Below, one piece after another: positions 6,687-61,720 of a DNA stretch of 64,000 bases (position 1 is its first letter; each line of letters opens with the position of its first letter). The position numbers were made by a program, and so were the translations under genes. This DNA comes from Patescibacteria group bacterium. Its GTDB lineage: Bacteria; Patescibacteriota; Patescibacteriia; JACRDY01. The notes below the pieces were generated by a model. It had not been told where the DNA came from. It saw nothing but the letters and a program-made list of their open reading frames with translations, and ran no database searches. The stretch spans positions 18,710-82,709 of the forward strand of contig JBAZLA010000001.1 in NCBI GenBank assembly GCA_041650515.1. The letters run 5' to 3'.

Positions 6687-6758
6687 AGACCCTGACAGGA
6701 TTCGAACCTGTGCGCAACCAGTACCAGTGGCTTGCTCTACCAACTGAGCTACAGGGTC
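6687..6758 (-). tRNA. tRNA-Thr, anticodon GGU
   Basis: Reverse complement folds as a cloverleaf. Acceptor GACCCUG/CAGGGUC, D-arm GCUC-AGUUGGUA-GAGC, anticodon arm AGCCA-CUGGUAC-UGGUU, T-arm ACAGG-UUCGAAU-CCUGU. 72 nt; no encoded CCA. Confidence 0.85.
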
Positions 6759-25514: not shown

Positions 25515-25665
25515 AATTTTAAATAATTAAATCTAAATTCCGACATCCAAACTCGCCAGATACTTATTCTATTTGAGTGCGAATTGATTGATCTTAATGC
25601 CCGGTGACTACGGCTTAATTTTGGCAGTCCTACACTCTGATTCTGATAATGAATCCGCGAATCTG

Positions 25666-25694
25666 TTGACAAATAAATCTTTATCTGTTACTAT
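25666..25694 (+). promoter_or_regulatory. Sigma70-like promoter TTGACA-17-TACTAT driving the small GC-rich gene
   Basis: Consensus -35 element, 17-nt spacer, TACTAT -10 element, then AAGGAGGG SD at 25729-25736. Confidence 0.5.
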
Positions 25695-25740
25695 AAAAAA
25701 TTCTAAATGTCTTTAATTCGTCTAAGATAAGGAGGGCATC

Positions 25741-26019
25741 TTGATACAAGTAGGAAGCACCGTGCGAATAAAGAGTCAGGAGGAGATCCAATCTCTTTGT
25801 GTATGGTCTGACCATTTGCTCTGTGATCCGGATTTGCCTCGGATTGATTTCTGTAGAACTGAGGATATCAGCAGCGGAAGCGTCAAAGCTGAAGGCATGG
25901 AGATTCATTGCGGGAAAACGACAACGATCGCGGCGGAAGACCGGGATGGTGGCTTTCGCTTGGCGATCGATGACAGGCGTCACTGTTGGTCAGCCAAGTG
26001 GCTGGAAGAAGTCGTATAG
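25741..26019 (+). CDS. Hypothetical 92-aa protein on the opposite strand to its neighbours; GC-rich, TTG start, strong SD, own promoter and terminator
   Basis: MIQVGSTVRIKSQEEIQSL... has no family recognised. A self-contained expression unit. Confidence 0.45.
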   Translation: MIQVGSTVRIKSQEEIQSLCVWSDHLLCDPDLPRIDFCRTEDISSGSVKAEGMEIHCGKTTTIAAEDRDGGFRLAIDDRRHCWSAKWLEEVV

Positions 26020-26047
26020 CCTCGCACTCGATGCTCACAACGCCCTT

Positions 26048-26078
26048 GCCTAGATGGAAACGTCTAGGCAATTTTTTA
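26048..26078 (+). terminator. Rho-independent terminator of the 92-aa gene
   Basis: gcctagatggaaacgtctaggc followed by aatttttt. Confidence 0.65.
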
Positions 26079-26109
26079 AATTTTAAAATGCAATAATATC
26101 TAATAAATA

Positions 26110-35634: not shown

Positions 35635-36120
35635 ATACAAAGTTTAGAAAATTTTAATATTGAATATTTTATACTAGTTTTATTAACTAATTAGCAAATA
35701 CAACTTTATGATGATTAAATCATACAAAGACCTACTCGTCTGGCAGGTAGGAATTGAGCTAGTAATAGCTACCTATGAGCTAACAGAGCAATTCCCGAAA
35801 AAAGAACAATTTGGACTAACCTCGCAGATTAGAAGAGCCTCAATCTCTATCCCATCTAATGTCGCCGAGGGTTATCAACGTAAAACTGATGGGGAACTTT
35901 TACGTTTCTTATTGATTGCTCTCGGTTCGGCCTCTGAACTAGAAACTCAACTTTTTTTAGCCAAAAAATTGAAAATGACATCCGAGGAATACTTTCTAAG
36001 AATAGATAATTTGTTAACACGAGTACTCCAGCTTACCAACTCTTTTATCAATAAACTACGCAAGGATACCGGGCGAACAGCGAACCGCGGCCAGCGAACC
36101 GCGGCCAGCGAACCGCAACA
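35595..36120. mobile_element. Inverted-repeat cassette carrying four-helix-bundle gene 2; left arm (GCGGTTC)x3-4, right arm (CAGCGAACCGCGGC)x3
   Basis: The flanks are reverse-complementary heptamer arrays. The cargo gene is antisense to both neighbours. Confidence 0.65.
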
Positions 36121-36133
36121 AACTAACCGCTGA
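35708..36133 (+). CDS. Four-helix-bundle protein of the 23S rRNA IVS family, copy 2
   Basis: MMIKSYKDLLVWQVG...IPSNVAEGYQRKT...ASELETQLFLAKKL is paralogous to the 5748..6104 product. The C-terminal 20 aa are encoded by the flanking repeat. Confidence 0.8.
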   Translation: MMIKSYKDLLVWQVGIELVIATYELTEQFPKKEQFGLTSQIRRASISIPSNVAEGYQRKTDGELLRFLLIALGSASELETQLFLAKKLKMTSEEYFLRIDNLLTRVLQLTNSFINKLRKDTGRTANRGQRTAASEPQQTNR

Positions 36134-37328: not shown

Positions 37329-37338
37329 ATCTATTATA

Positions 37339-37432
37339 AAGTATGCGGCATACAGTATTTAGCATGCAGACGTCGGATACCACCGTTCCTAAAAAATGAT
37401 CCCTACATACTGCATACCGCATACTGTATACT
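37339..37432. repeat. Hairpin element with AGTATGC heptamer arms, between the aminotransferase and trxB
   Basis: agtatgcggcatacagtat...tacatactgcataccgcatactgtatac. Confidence 0.8.
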
Positions 37433-48208: not shown

Positions 48209-48823
48209 TTATTTAATCACCACCTGGCCATCAACAACGTTGATTTTACCTTCAGCAAAAAGCCGAACGGCTCGACAAATTACATCTTGCTCGGCCGCCT
48301 GGACTTTGTTTTTGAGTGACTCAACAGTTTCATCGGACGCGACATCAACTTCTTGCTGCAAAATAATTGGCCCAGCATCAGCTTGCTCGGTAATAAAATG
48401 CAAAGTACAGCCGGTTTTTTTAACGCCAGCCTTGAGTACTTCTTCGTGGACATTCTTATCCATACCGCCAGCAAAAGCGGGCAAAAGCGACGGATGAATG
48501 TTCATGGTTTTATTACCCCAAGCATCCACAAACGACTTGGATAAAAAGCGCATATAGCCGATTAGTAGAACCAGATCAATTTTTTTCTCGGCCAACACCC
48601 TTATTAATTCGCGATCAAACTCCTCGCGGCTCTTGCCGGTGCCATTAATAAAAATCGCTTCGATATTATTTTGCCCAGCTCGGGCTAGGGCGCCCGAGTC
48701 AGCTTTATTGGAAATAAAACAAACAACCTCAGCTGGAATTTTACCGGCCTGAGTTTCTATAATTAACTGCTGCGAGGAAGTGGCATTAGTGGAGGCTAAG
48801 ATAGCGACCCGCAGTTTAGACAT
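48209..48823 (-). CDS. purN: Phosphoribosylglycinamide formyltransferase
   Basis: Formyl_trans_N fold with the NIHPSLLP motif. Confidence 0.9.
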   Translation of the reverse strand: MSKLRVAILASTNATSSQQLIIETQAGKIPAEVVCFISNKADSGALARAGQNNIEAIFINGTGKSREEFDRELIRVLAEKKIDLVLLIGYMRFLSKSFVDAWGNKTMNIHPSLLPAFAGGMDKNVHEEVLKAGVKKTGCTLHFITEQADAGPIILQQEVDVASDETVESLKNKVQAAEQDVICRAVRLFAEGKINVVDGQVVIK

Positions 48824-48883
48824 ATTTAATAAAATTTTTAAATCTATTTAATATCCAATATTCCACACTATTAATAGGGTTGT

Positions 48884-48952
48884 GGGCCTACGCCTGGCGG
48901 CGATATTTAGGGTTGACTCCTGAATACGGGGGTTCGATTCCCCCTGGGTCCA
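48884..48952 (+). other. tRNA-like fragment: intact T-arm (GGGGG-TTCGATT-CCCCC) and acceptor strand with a GGGCCTA 5' partner, but no canonical D-arm or anticodon arm (69 nt); probably a tRNA 3'-half remnant or integration scar
   Basis: gggcctacg...acgggggttcgattccccctgggtcca. No cloverleaf could be completed. Confidence 0.4.
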
Positions 48953-48960
48953 CGCCCCGA

Positions 48961-48990
48961 TTGACAAAGTGATAAAACTAACGATATAAT
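48961..48990 (+). promoter_or_regulatory. Near-perfect sigma70 promoter TTGACA-18-TATAAT with no plus-strand gene downstream
   Basis: ttgacaaagtgataaaactaacgatataat. Confidence 0.5.
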
Positions 48991-48997
48991 AATGATG

Positions 48998-49050
48998 GAG
49001 TCAACCTTGAATACCGCTCAAATCCCCGGCAACGGGGATTTGTTTTGTTT
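48998..49050 (+). ncRNA. Candidate roughly 50-nt small RNA bounded by the consensus promoter and a strong terminator
   Basis: Transcribed region gagtcaaccttgaataccgctc, then terminator aatccccggcaacggggatt plus tgttttgtttt (49021-49050). Its 5' part is reverse-complementary to gttgactcc in the upstream tRNA-like fragment. Confidence 0.3.
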
Positions 49051-50360
49051 TAGCTTTTTAACTCTTCAATATGATCAACCCGCTTTTGCAGTAATGCAGC
49101 CGTACCAATATCTTTTCGATAAAAAATTTTACCCTTGACCGCGGCCACACCAGACTGAGCGATCCTTTCGGCGTCAGCTAAAGTACCAGCCACACCCACC
49201 ATCGCTACCGCGCGCGAACCAGTCATTATCATTTGACCATTTTGTTCCTCAACTGAACCTAAATACATTTTAACGTTTCGAGGAACTGAGCTTAAATCAA
49301 TTGGCTCGCCTTTAAGTGGCGCATCGGGATAACCCTCGGGCACAACATATTTACACACCGTCGCCTGTTCGGAAAATTCTAACTTGATTTTACCTAAAGT
49401 GCCACTAATAATCCGCTGGCAGACTTCTACCAAATCGCTAGCCAGAATCGGCATAATATTCTCGGCCTCGGGATCGCCAAACCGGGCGTTATACTCAATC
49501 AACCGTACGCCATCTTTGGTCACAATAAAACCGCCGTACATTACACCTTTATAAAATTTTCCAGTTTCTTGTTTTATCGCCGCGGCCATCTGACGCGTGA
49601 TCTCTAAACCGACGTTAACATCTTCTGTCTTTAAAAACGGTAATAAATGGTTGGCGTCAGTGTATGAACCCATGCCGCCGGTATTTGGTCCTTGGTCGCC
49701 ATCATAAGCCCGCTTGTGATCCTGGGCCGGTGGCGTCGCTAGTACTGTTACTCCATCAGTTAAACACTGCAAAGAAAATTCTTCACCAACAAATTTTTCT
49801 TCAACCACCACGGCGCCATCTTCTTTAATACATTCCACGGCGTAGTCAAAGCCATCATCAATCCCTTGCAAATGTTCGCCAACTACTTTAACGCCTTTAC
49901 CGCCATGCAAACCATCGGCCTTGACTACAAACTGACCACCGAGCGACTGCATAAATTCTTTGATGCCAATAGTGGACTTAAAAACCTGATAGCGTGGATT
50001 GCCCGGGATATTATATTTTTTCATCAGATTGCGCGTAAATGATTTGGAAGTTTCTAGTTGCGCTAATTCTTGATATGGACCGACGGATGGGATACCGGCT
50101 TTTTCTAAGGCATCAACGACGCCAGTCGAAAGCGGCGCTTCGGGACCCATGATGCTAAAATTAATTTGATTATCCTGAGCAAATTTAACAATTTTATCCA
50201 ATTCGCTATATTTACCAACCTCAAACTTCTCCGACAACGAGATTAAACCCGGATTGCGGCTGGATAAATAAGTAAATAATTTAATATTTTGAGGCGAACG
50301 CTTGAGCGCTTCGGCTATCGCGTGCTCCCGGGCGCCATTACCCACGAGTAGAATATTCAT
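49050..50360 (-). CDS. purD: Phosphoribosylamine-glycine ligase
   Basis: ATP-grasp fold, full-length PurD. Confidence 0.95.
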   Translation of the reverse strand: MNILLVGNGAREHAIAEALKRSPQNIKLFTYLSSRNPGLISLSEKFEVGKYSELDKIVKFAQDNQINFSIMGPEAPLSTGVVDALEKAGIPSVGPYQELAQLETSKSFTRNLMKKYNIPGNPRYQVFKSTIGIKEFMQSLGGQFVVKADGLHGGKGVKVVGEHLQGIDDGFDYAVECIKEDGAVVVEEKFVGEEFSLQCLTDGVTVLATPPAQDHKRAYDGDQGPNTGGMGSYTDANHLLPFLKTEDVNVGLEITRQMAAAIKQETGKFYKGVMYGGFIVTKDGVRLIEYNARFGDPEAENIMPILASDLVEVCQRIISGTLGKIKLEFSEQATVCKYVVPEGYPDAPLKGEPIDLSSVPRNVKMYLGSVEEQNGQMIMTGSRAVAMVGVAGTLADAERIAQSGVAAVKGKIFYRKDIGTAALLQKRVDHIEELKS

Positions 50361-61376: not shown

Positions 61377-61435
61377 CTTTAACTTGATTTTTTAGAAAAA
61401 TTTGCTAAGGTTCTAATTAATCATTGGAGGGGCAC

Positions 61436-61696
61436 ATGATAGTCATCAAAGGATTGTTGCTAGCCATCGGAATAGTCGCCAGTGTCGCCATACTATATGT
61501 GGTGGCCATTCGGCCAAAAAAGACAGTACCCCGCTGGAGTGGTGTGGTCATTCTCATCGGCGGAATTGCCTTAATTGGACTGGCATTCCTGCTCGAAAAA
61601 GATTCAACCATACACCTTTCCACCTGTAGCGGCATAATCGGCGTAATCTTCACCCTCGGAGGAGGCATCCACACTCTTTTCTGGGGTAAAGATTAA
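61436..61696 (+). CDS. Small (about 86-aa) three-TM membrane protein on the opposite strand, with SD GGAGGGG and its own terminator
   Basis: ATG at 61436 is preceded by ggaggggcac, the same 14-nt context as the 6292..6606 gene. Terminator actacc-atcccaa-cggtagt plus T7 at 61695-61723. Confidence 0.45.
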   Translation: MIVIKGLLLAIGIVASVAILYVVAIRPKKTVPRWSGVVILIGGIALIGLAFLLEKDSTIHLSTCSGIIGVIFTLGGGIHTLFWGKD

Positions 61697-61720
61697 ACTA
61701 CCATCCCAACGGTAGTTTTT

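Follow-up and report, generated by a model that had tools for sequence, protein, structure and literature searches.

Two adjacent small-RNA genes lying between purD and purN in a Patescibacteria group bacterium appear to form one conserved module, and we judge it somewhat probable that the RNA of the second gene sequesters or unfolds that of the first, an alanine-chargeable tRNA mimic. The genes were found in a 64,000-nucleotide stretch of genomic DNA, referred to here as the window, and all coordinates are positions in it. Five further modules were found in three related Patescibacteria genomes, so the conservation set consists of six modules, drawn from four genomes within a single lineage. 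Judged from these copies, the module appears to be self-contained, multi-copy and cognate-specific.

A predicted tRNA-like gene with an alanine-type acceptor end

The first gene is predicted to encode a non-canonical tRNA-like RNA of 69 nt (48,884–48,952, forward strand, as for every feature below), as defined by its fold, covariance models and covariation. Its 7-bp acceptor stem pairs 48,884–48,890 (GGGCCUA) with 48,945–48,951 (UGGGUCC) and includes G3:U70. A D hairpin (CGCC-UGGC-GGCG; 48,891–48,902) follows the acceptor stem directly, and a single A (48,903) leads into an 8-bp anticodon-like stem (48,904–48,911 with 48,919–48,926) that carries the loop GUUGACU (48,912–48,918). After a one-nucleotide variable region, C (48,927), comes a canonical T arm, GGGGG-UUCGAUU-CCCCC, with the loop UUCGAUU (48,928–48,944). 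The unit ends at A73 (48,952), and CCA is not encoded. The tRNA-Thr gene of the window likewise has no encoded CCA, so CCA addition must exist in the organism.

The original prediction had taken the T arm, the 3′ acceptor strand and the A after it as intact, and so they are, but it had also taken the rest of the cloverleaf as lost. The 5′ acceptor strand is in place, and the 69 nt folded alone form a four-helix cloverleaf (−33.3 kcal/mol, z −2.3; 3 of 200 shuffles equal), every helix of which is backed by compensatory changes in relatives. The cloverleaf is also the fold of three other members, copies b, c and L101, taken alone. With two covariance models, R1 and R2, the window copy scores 95.5 and 85.7 bits, respectively.

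The upper half of the molecule is apparently of the alanine acceptor type, having G1-C72, G2-C71, G3:U70, A73 and the canonical T arm, and its UGG-containing D loop could form an elbow. It is this half of a tRNA that RNase P, RNase Z, the CCA-adding enzyme and AlaRS recognize. The lower half of the window copy is odd, with no 8-9 linker, a 4-nt D loop, the 1-nt variable region and the 8-bp anticodon-like stem.

The leader AGGGUUGU (48,876–48,883, with U at −1) can pair with the trailer CGCCCCGA (48,953–48,960), which could lengthen the acceptor helix by up to 7–9 bp. Directly 5′ of G1 stands GGGU(U)GU in the window copy and in copies a, b and L101, and GGGCUU in copy c. The trailer after A73 is YRCC in five of the six copies and ACCC in copy c. 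TATTAAT (48,869–48,875) is a candidate weak −10 element for the tRNA-like RNA, proposed from sequence alone; −10-like words occur 8–24 nt upstream of G1 in the other copies. A search for a −35 element of the tRNA-like RNA gave no convincing one, leaving this −10 a candidate.

A predicted small RNA gene with its own promoter and terminator

The second gene begins right after the trailer with a σ70-type promoter, TTGACA-18-TATAAT (48,961–48,990), which has 12 of 12 matches. With the start placed 7 nt after the −10 element, the predicted sRNA is ~54 nt long (about 48,997–49,051). It would consist of the 5′ seed GGAGUCAACCUUGAAUACCGCU (48,997–49,018), a terminator hairpin of 10 pairs, six of them G-C (49,019–49,042), and a U-tract (49,043–49,051) that overlaps the purD stop codon by 2 nt. 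Both the promoter and the strong hairpin with its T-tract had been noted before and hold. A perfect TTGACA-N18-TATAAT occurs once in the window, where 0.05 would be expected by chance. The terminator abuts the 3′ end of the convergent purD gene, and no gene lies downstream.

Near-consensus promoter hexamers are kept in six of six modules, while the spacers between them vary in sequence and in length (16–18 nt). The 5′ seed and the terminator are likewise conserved in the six modules from four genomes, and the seed of the window copy is identical to that of its orthologue at 19 of 20 positions. Hexamers spaced by 16–18 nt and a hairpin with a U-tract, all kept in relatives, point to an independent sRNA gene, and the small regulatory RNA that the original prediction had offered as one of two alternatives is thereby favored. 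No conserved open reading frame was found on either strand of the six modules, the frames present being read-throughs of the tRNA-like sequence.

Copy-specific complementarity between the two RNAs

The first ~22 nt of the sRNA are complementary to nucleotides 13–37 of the tRNA-like RNA. The complementary site (48,896–48,920) runs from the 3′ strand of the D stem through the 5′ side of the anticodon-like stem and its loop to 2 nt past the loop. Complementarity between the sRNA 5′ end and the tRNA-like region had been predicted as a 9-mer (GGAGUCAACC with GGUUGACUCC); the match is real, but its extent is 21–22 pairs rather than nine. RNAduplex gives the seed and its site in the window −33.8 kcal/mol with 22 pairs, and none of 500 shuffled seeds equals it. 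In a target scan of the whole window (background mean −9.1, s.d. 3.4), the tRNA-like site is the best non-self target of the seed, at −33.5 kcal/mol versus −24.4 kcal/mol for the next.

When all copies are cross-compared, cognate duplexes range from −31.7 to −40.2 kcal/mol and non-cognate ones from −14.3 to −27.7 kcal/mol, so that every sRNA fits its own partner better than any other copy. Three paralogues in one genome have three different seeds, each matching its own partner. Thus, the duplex matrix, the shuffles and the window scan together find complementarity that is above chance and covaries between the partners across copies, as in an antisense pair.

We propose the following course. 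The sRNA would be transcribed from its consensus promoter and ended at the intrinsic terminator. Its single-stranded 5′ end would pair first with the 7–9-nt anticodon-like loop, and pairing would then spread through the stem and the D arm to 20–29 bp. A duplex of that length would be incompatible with the cloverleaf, so the sRNA may sequester or unfold its own tRNA mimic or mark it for degradation.

Alternatively, the two units could belong to one precursor with two folds, in which the tRNA-like transcript runs to the shared terminator and the 3′ anti-loop acts in cis. The anti-loop would then decide between a cloverleaf that is matured and a long helix that is degraded, and the internal promoter would merely supply extra anti-loop RNA. 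No terminator separates the tRNA-like unit from the sRNA unit, and the 169-nt fold of the window copy favors the long-range helix (−69.5 kcal/mol, z −5.2). Also in keeping with this course, a possible distant relative in Gracilibacteria (L012) combines a tRNA-like RNA with a terminator and a short trailer, in which the 7-nt anti-loop word GACAAUC answers GAUUGUC of the loop, but it has no promoter. On the other hand, the minimum-energy fold of the whole copy b transcript retains the cloverleaf and not the long-range helix, the L012 trailer overall is no more complementary than shuffles, and the near-consensus hexamers kept in six modules argue for an independent transcript. We therefore regard a single two-fold precursor as unlikely.

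The main target of the sRNA could instead be read-through mRNA of the opposite-strand pur operon, to which the sRNA is perfectly antisense. Both RNAs would then act chiefly as cis-antisense RNAs or transcriptional roadblocks that uncouple the cistrons upstream from those downstream, and the complementarity between tRNA-like RNA and seed would be secondary. All six modules do lie antisense in gaps between co-directional genes, and the strongest partner of the seed in the window is its own antisense strand (−42.6 kcal/mol), though trivially. However, such a role leaves unexplained the tRNA-like architecture, the invariant G3:U70 and the cognate covariation of seed and loop, whose G·U pairs would be C·A mismatches in the operon mRNA. 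Moreover, the neighbors of the modules are unrelated (purD/purN; purN/a hypothetical gene; a Pyr_redox-family gene/an aminotransferase gene), and polarity alone would allow the same orientation for any unit with a strong one-way terminator. This makes a mainly cis-antisense function quite unlikely.

The complementarity can also be read at the DNA level. The 5′ half of the tRNA-like unit and the seed form inverted repeats of 15–25 bp that flank the consensus promoter in six of six modules. As recombination sites they would allow a segment of ~76 bp (48,921–48,996) to be flipped so that the strong promoter drives the next operon gene, here purN; the orientation in six of six modules would let a flipped promoter read into the next gene, and at present it points into a terminator and has ‘nothing to transcribe’. 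We consider such an invertible promoter switch very unlikely. The repeats are ~75–85 bp apart, and we know of no invertible segment that short. A single orientation is seen in six independent assemblies (L001, L002, L083–L086), and no recombinase is among the genes listed beside any copy. Strong structural selection acts on the tRNA-like fold, also in those parts of it that lie beyond the repeats. In an unbiased alignment, transitions in the repeat arms tilt toward wobble-compatible changes (eight G·U versus two A·C, along with five transversions), although this lean favors the RNA level over the DNA level of the inverted repeat only weakly.

Conservation and distribution

The six members, aligned by fitting to the model, share 24 pairs, in which 97.2% of the cells are paired and 18 of 24 pairs have changed on both sides. 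None of 500 shuffles matches the observed covariation, and slid controls are 37–57% paired. G1-C72, G2-C71, G3:U70 and A73 are invariant in all members, and acceptor pairs 4–7 covary. Between the window copy and its orthologue, copy a, 21 of 69 positions differ; all 15 stem substitutions keep pairing, and five pairs are compensated on both sides. Members score 72–86 bits, compared with 35 bits for a real tRNA-Val and 17–46 bits for phage tRNAs, and copy c was detected by a covariance model trained without it. Across copies, the linker is 0–1 nt, the D loop 4–5 nt, the anticodon-like stem 6–8 bp and the variable region 1–2 nt, and C37 is invariant. The anticodon-like loop is 7–9 nt long, and 9 nt in three copies unless an A·C pair closes it. 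L012 scores 33 bits with the independent model R1, a range that ordinary tRNAs reach with the later R2.

The module in the window is flanked by purF-purD on one side and purN-maf on the other, with no integrase or mobile-element genes nearby. The orthologous purD–purN junction (L083/L102) carries the tRNA-like unit and the same neighbor genes. Its PurD and PurN are 80% identical to those of the window, a distance at which neutral DNA is unalignable. Module copies are gained and lost between syntenic genomes of close relatives. The module is absent from L090, where purD and purN adjoin without a gap, from L099 and L103–L106, where purD is followed by His_Phos_1, and from L100, L107–L109 and the Peribacteria L003–L007. 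As for insertion borders, intergenic DNA has diverged too far for the empty site at 37,329–37,430 of the window to be aligned with the locus of copy c.

The other alternative in the original prediction was an att-site remnant: an integrative element would have left behind a second copy of the 3′ half of a tRNA or tmRNA gene, next to a decayed integrase module. The T arm and 3′ acceptor strand do resemble the 3′ ends of tRNA-Ala and tmRNA, and the tmRNA model matches the T arm alone. Such a remnant is nonetheless extremely improbable: the unit has its two acceptor strands and its four helices, all of which covary, it keeps its place at the junction in the relative despite the divergence of neutral DNA, and the flanks are purD and purN with no integrase close by. 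Rather, the tRNA-like unit is complete and under purifying selection for structure.

Comparison with known RNA families

ARAGORN called no tRNA or tmRNA at the locus, nor any of the six copies. The original prediction was to fall if a tRNA or tmRNA model scored a whole gene here, and none did; the unit is complete but non-canonical. At gathering thresholds, Rfam finds only the tRNA-Thr in the window and nothing at the locus (the gathering score of RF00005 is 29 bits). A relaxed search of the locus gave only sub-threshold matches, to the tmRNA T arm, mascRNA, tRNA-Sec, YrlA and a plastid family, and no match to a T-box family at E-values up to 10. The best match within the tRNA clan is tmRNA, at 15 bits (gathering 47) and over the T arm only. 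The plastid match covers the T arm only, on the reverse strand, and outscores mascRNA.

In wider searches, the seed word AGTCAACYTTGAATACCGC had seven matches in a metagenome collection, all chance ones in high-GC coding DNA, and none in a viral collection. A viral scan for a pattern of T arm, trailer and −35 element met ordinary phage tRNAs and no module. Incidentally, the same scan also met a separate RNA resembling the tRNA-like domain (TLD) of tmRNA. BLAST of the module against phage and plasmid collections gave no matches. Our literature search found no published description of the two-gene module or of a tRNA-shaped RNA accompanied by an antisense RNA gene of its own, and we know of no other RNA of the latter kind.

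The unit shares with canonical tRNA a 7-bp acceptor stem and a 5-bp T stem with a UUCRANY T loop, but it departs from the 2-nt 8-9 linker, the 7–11-nt D loop, the 5-bp anticodon stem, the variable loop of at least 4 nt and the purine at 37. It resembles the tmRNA TLD in G1-C72, G2-C71, G3:U70, A73, a UGG in the D region, a T arm with the GGUUCGAUUCC core of the Rfam tmRNA consensus, and a long helix in place of the 5-bp anticodon stem. These common features predict charging by AlaRS. Unlike tmRNA, it has 37 nt between acceptor strand and T arm, a true, covarying D stem, and no pseudoknot, resume codon, tag ORF or stop codon. A dedicated antisense partner of tmRNA is not known to us. A two-piece or permuted tmRNA was rejected, as the acceptor strands and the T arm form one contiguous unit, and the sRNA sequences, read for a tag, have no consistent tag-like frame.

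In the relaxed Rfam search, the top family aligning over the whole unit is mascRNA/MEN-beta (RF01684), at 20.2 bits for the window copy, 21.3 for copy a and 35.1 for L012, all below the gathering score of 42.5. It too is a compact cloverleaf with a 7-bp acceptor stem, an adjoining small D hairpin, no variable loop and a canonical T arm. However, mascRNA is a vertebrate nuclear RNA, freed from a long noncoding RNA by RNase P and RNase Z, and has neither alanine identity nor an antisense partner. The resemblance is one of shape only.

Among decoding tRNAs, tRNAPyl and mt-tRNASer(UCN) have 0–1 nt between acceptor and D stems, a 4–5-nt D loop, an anticodon stem longer than usual and a very short variable region, and some allo-tRNAs with G3:U70 insert alanine (PMC7609411). 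The same short acceptor-D link, small D loop, elongated stem and very short variable region are seen here. Conceivably, the unit is a working decoder with an extremely compact core that carries alanine and reads UCA, or CUA and UUA in the case of other copies. It would then be a natural tRNA for recoding or mistranslation, with an anti-anticodon sRNA as its gate. The D stem, linker and anticodon-like stem always add up to ~12–13 layers, three above canonical tRNA, with hardly any core connectors left, and tRNAPyl and mt-tRNASer(UCN) compensate in the same manner (PMC7609411). U33 is invariant in the 7-nt loop, and elbow elements are present. On the other hand, decoders have a purine at 37, whereas C37 is invariant here; three copies may have 9-nt loops; no tRNA model recognizes the unit; and the geometry argument is inferential. 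The known compact-core tRNAs also have a 6-bp anticodon stem rather than one of ~8 layers, proven decoding and no neighboring antisense sRNA gene. We hold a decoding role to be improbable.

As for the pairing, antisense control with loop-initiated pairing is familiar from CopA/CopT, RNA I/RNA II and type I toxin-antitoxin paralogues such as Sib/Ibs. In common with these, a short, strongly promoted and terminated RNA is predicted here. Again in common, pairing would start at a U-turn-type loop and extend (UUGA in the window copy fits YUNR), and the modules occur in several paralogous intergenic copies, each partner-specific and patchy among relatives. In contrast to these systems, the target is a structured noncoding tRNA mimic and not an mRNA or primer, and the two genes are in tandem rather than overlapping, with no toxin ORF. 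A type I toxin-antitoxin system was rejected because no ORF is conserved in the six modules. T-box leaders, too, are strongly promoted, terminated RNAs complementary to a tRNA-type anticodon loop, but the pairing here would cover 20–29 bp and destroy the cloverleaf. A T-box-like attenuator was rejected, as inspection revealed no antiterminator pairing and no downstream gene.

Discussion

The components of the module are familiar (tRNA mimicry, antisense pairing, a σ70 promoter, an intrinsic terminator); it is their combination that we have not found described. Within the module, specificity is matched copy by copy.

A further step would be to see the pair as an RNA-only module of addiction or defence type, made of a stable, alanine-charged tRNA mimic and a labile antisense sRNA. 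The mimic would disturb translation as a compact decoder (alanine at UCA, CUA or UUA) or by entering the A site like a tmRNA TLD without a template. The labile, strongly transcribed anti-anticodon sRNA would hold its own copy unfolded, and when transcription stops the mimic would be released, following toxin-antitoxin logic. The multi-copy, cognate-specific, gain-and-loss distribution is consistent with such a module. Both partners are RNA in the type VIII pairs CreT/CreA and SdsR/RyeA as well, and CreT toxins are reported to act on tRNA and the translation machinery (PMC8501985, PMC10097628). CreA, however, works through Cascade and represses transcription, while the present module shows no CRISPR-Cas context. 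That the tRNA mimic is toxic is purely conjectural, and we think an addiction module rather unlikely.

Sequestration or unfolding of the mimic by its sRNA remains our preferred reading. The tRNA-like RNA represents a new structured RNA family whose covariation is unusually clean and whose alanine identity set does not vary, so that AlaRS, RNase P and CCA-adding assays could test it directly. It is also a new example of tRNA architecture, in that an 8-layer anticodon-like stem may offset a nearly absent core. To our knowledge, almost nothing is known about small RNAs of CPR/Patescibacteria. Should the ribosome or aminoacyl-transfer enzymes be what the mimic acts on, a new form of RNA-based control, or selfish or defence modules made of RNA alone, would come to light in minimal genomes.

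Two RNA genes between purN and purD

The module lies inside a 226-nt gap (48824-49049) flanked on both sides by minus-strand genes, a purN-like gene (48209-48823, −) and a purD-like gene (49050-50360, −), with a purF-like gene beyond. It comprises a gene for a tRNA-like RNA (48884-48952, +) and a downstream gene for a small RNA (sRNA; about 48997-49051, ~54 nt predicted). The original prediction saw here a tRNA 3′-half-like fragment with a broken cloverleaf, as expected of an att-site remnant, followed by a promoter and a terminator. The T arm, 3′ acceptor strand and A73 are indeed present, as are the TTGACA-18-TATAAT promoter (48961-48990, 12/12 positions matching) and the terminator, a 10-pair hairpin followed by a T-tract (49019-49051). 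Such a perfect promoter occurs once in the 64-kb window vs 0.05 expected by chance. The cloverleaf, on the other hand, is closed, as GGGCCUA (48884-48890) pairs with UGGGUCC (48945-48951), and the 69 nt folded alone form four helices (−33.3 kcal/mol, z −2.3).

The 7-bp acceptor stem contains G3:U70 and is accompanied by A73. The D hairpin (CGCC-UGGC-GGCG) begins immediately 3′ of it without the 8-9 linker, and one linker A precedes an 8-bp anticodon-like stem (UAUUUAGG/CCUGAAUA) with a GUUGACU loop. The variable region is 1 nt, and the T arm (GGGGG-UUCGAUU-CCCCC) is canonical. CCA is not encoded. Because the tRNA-Thr(GGU) gene (6687-6758, −), the only canonical tRNA gene of the window, does not encode it either, CCA must be added post-transcriptionally in this organism.

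Neither ARAGORN nor Rfam at gathering thresholds called the tRNA-like RNA, and no Rfam 15 family matches the locus at threshold. Relaxed Rfam searching gave only matches below threshold, to the T arm of tmRNA at 15 bits and to mascRNA at 20 bits (gathering 42.5). A tmRNA is ruled out, as the message domain has no space.

Six modules in one lineage

The source organism is an uncultured member of the Patescibacteria (CPR). Contigs were fetched via relatives of PurN, PurD and PurA, and then searched with covariance models of the tRNA-like RNA, R1 built on the window's sequence and its orthologue (copy a), and R2 built on six sequences. Among species-representative genomes, the best matches carry Patescibacteria or Peribacteria labels, with PurD ~55% identical. 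Once a few close relatives within the CPR are set aside, the best-matching homologues of PurN and PurD are ~57-61% identical and many belong to DPANN archaea (Woesearchaeota, Aenigmarchaeota, Nanoarchaeota), a pattern suggesting that CPR bacteria and DPANN archaea have exchanged genes for purine synthesis.

Five more complete modules were recovered, making a set of six in four genomes of one lineage. R2 scores its members at 72-86 bits vs 35 for a genuine tRNA-Val and 17-46 for phage tRNAs, and copy c was picked up by a model built without it. Copy a occupies the orthologous purD-purN gap of a related genome (L083/L102), whose PurD and PurN are 80% identical to the window's. The same genome has two paralogues, copy b 3′ of purN and copy c between a Pyr_redox-family gene and an aminotransferase gene. 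Of two further genomes, L101 has its module in the purD-purN gap (PurD 62% identical) and L098 after purD (PurD 71% identical), the latter module being cut by the contig end.

Synteny between the window and L102 extends for ~30 kb, most of which shows protein identities of 70-83%. Neither copy b nor copy c is matched in the window, where the corresponding gaps measure 6 nt and 102 nt. Relatives with the same operon, some closer and some more distant, lack the module altogether. A self-contained unit able to spread, and also to be lost, would account for this distribution. All six modules sit between co-directional genes and point opposite to them, and wherever both flanks are known (five modules), the terminator adjoins the upstream gene at its 3′ end, as would fit a module tolerated solely where its one-way terminator leaves the operon unblocked.

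The tRNA-like model found no match in other big window gaps between co-directional genes (61377-61720, 25515-26109 and 35635-36122; 345-600 nt). The window's Pyr_redox-family gene/aminotransferase gap (37329-37430) contains GTATGC-type repeats, several L102 intergenic gaps contain short GCTAA/AGCTA-type repeats, and a GC-rich hairpin with a T-run lies in operon orientation just upstream of purN (L083:2925-2965).

The sRNA promoters are TTGACA-18-TATAAT in the window, TTGACA-16-TATAAT in copy a, TTGACA-16-TACAAT in copy b, TTGACG-16-TATACT in copy c, TTGACA-17-TAATAT in L101 and TTGACA-17-TATATT in L098, and their spacers have no sequence relation among the six. The 5′ part of the sRNA (seed) starts 5-9 nt 3′ of the −10 element and is followed by the terminator, with an additional hairpin ahead of it in L101. 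The seeds of the window and copy a are 19/20 identical, whereas the adjacent spacer is unalignable. A strong promoter and a terminator are conserved, and each module has two conserved RNA genes. No conserved ORF was found on either strand of the modules. A type I toxin-antitoxin system is ruled out by the absent toxin ORF, and a T-box by the absence of both an antiterminator and a downstream gene.

Selection on the fold

Between the window's tRNA-like RNA and that of copy a, 21/69 positions differ, yet 15/15 stem substitutions preserve pairing and five pairs are changed on both sides. Over all six modules, pairing is kept at 97.2% in the 24 pairs, 18 of which changed on both sides, and no column shuffle out of 500 did as well; pairing falls to 37-57% when the 3′ partners are slid by 1-3 columns. 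This alignment was fitted to the model and is biased towards structure, but structural selection is robust because of the effect size and the independent folds. An att remnant is ruled out by this complete, selected structure and by the absence of an integrase nearby.

G1-C72, G2-C71, G3:U70 and A73 are constant in all six modules, while covariation is seen at acceptor pairs 4-7. If recognition by AlaRS is selected, a wobble pair should stay fixed while its neighbours covary, as seen here; this expectation rests on the known identity elements of tRNA-Ala and tmRNA. The upper half is of tRNA type with the alanine identity set.

The lower half differs. The layers of the D stem, the linker and the anticodon-like stem sum to ~12-13 in every case, 3 above a normal tRNA, and the core connectors are almost missing; the elbow-to-loop distance is conserved across modules. 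U33 and C37 are invariant in the anticodon-like loops (window, L102, L101, L098). A standard tRNA is ruled out by the failed models, the differing core and the invariant C37. Loop triplet 34-36 is UGA in four modules, and UAG and UAA in one each; these are the three stop-codon words read 5′-3′.

Pairing between the two RNAs

The window's seed pairs with nt 13-37 of the tRNA-like RNA (D 3′ strand, stem 5′ strand and loop) through 22 pairs (−33.8 kcal/mol). Because the duplex takes strands needed by the cloverleaf, the two are mutually exclusive. In every module, the duplex with the RNA of the same module (cognate) has −31.7 to −40.2 kcal/mol vs −14.3 to −27.7 for all non-cognate duplexes, and 0/500 shuffled seeds reach the cognate value. 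The three paralogues of one genome have distinct loops (GUUGACG, AAUUGACAC and GUUAGCA), each with its own matching seed. The complementarity is copy-specific and centred on the loop. In a scan of both strands of the window, leaving aside the antisense strand of the seed itself, the tRNA-like RNA was the best target at −33.5, ahead of −24.4 for the runner-up and a background averaging −9.1 (sd 3.4). The 169-nt read-through fold of the window's module favours a long helix, and that of copy b does not.

The complementary segments could also be read as repeats of a DNA inversion switch. This is unlikely, as the segment is just ~76 bp, one orientation only is seen in six assemblies, and structural selection reaches beyond the repeats; repeat transitions also lean weakly towards wobble-compatible changes (8 vs 2).

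Other tRNA-like and tmRNA-like RNAs

A Gracilibacteria contig (JBAZYV010000002.1; L012:4453-4565, +) has a tRNA-like RNA that shares the compact architecture and encodes ACCA, directly 3′ of purD on the same strand. A trailer and terminator follow, and a promoter is absent. It scores 35 bits against the mascRNA model, receives no ARAGORN call, has loop triplet UGU, and is possibly a distant relative.

At L102:13831-13888 (−), a perfect 36-nt palindrome (GGTATTAGCTAGGGAATT|AATTCCCTAGCTAATACC) resembles the copy b 5′ arm joined straight to its seed. It is followed by a separate terminator, scores 15.5 bits with R2, and is perhaps a module that has collapsed or decayed.

Putative viral contigs (IMG/VR sample 3300037295) carry a 77-nt closed tmRNA-TLD-like RNA (L111:3051-3127, +; same element at L110:4240-4316 and L114:3149-3225). 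It runs through GGGUCUG, CAAUGGUUUCGAC, a CUAGC..GCUAG helix with a short-loop cap, GAC, a T arm and CAGAUCC-A, with G3:U70. It has no message domain, receives no ARAGORN call, and could be a template-less mini-tmRNA.

A proposed mechanism

We found nothing resembling the module in literature on tRNA-like RNAs (CPR/Patescibacteria, RNA toxins, antisense/kissing interactions and non-canonical tRNAs); its components are familiar, unlike their combination.

The tRNA-like RNA would be processed like a tRNA, its leader probably pairing with its trailer; all five modules with upstream sequence (L098 is cut) keep U at −1. It would then receive CCA and be charged with alanine. The sRNA, predicted to be abundant, would bind the loop, where UUGA fits a YUNR U-turn, before invading the stem, so that the mimic would be sequestered, unfolded or degraded. 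Like the tRNA-like RNA, tRNAPyl and mt-tRNASer(UCN) combine longer stem layers with reduced core connectors, the same kind of compensation for a reduced core (PMC7609411). The tRNA mimic may therefore have a ribosomal role.
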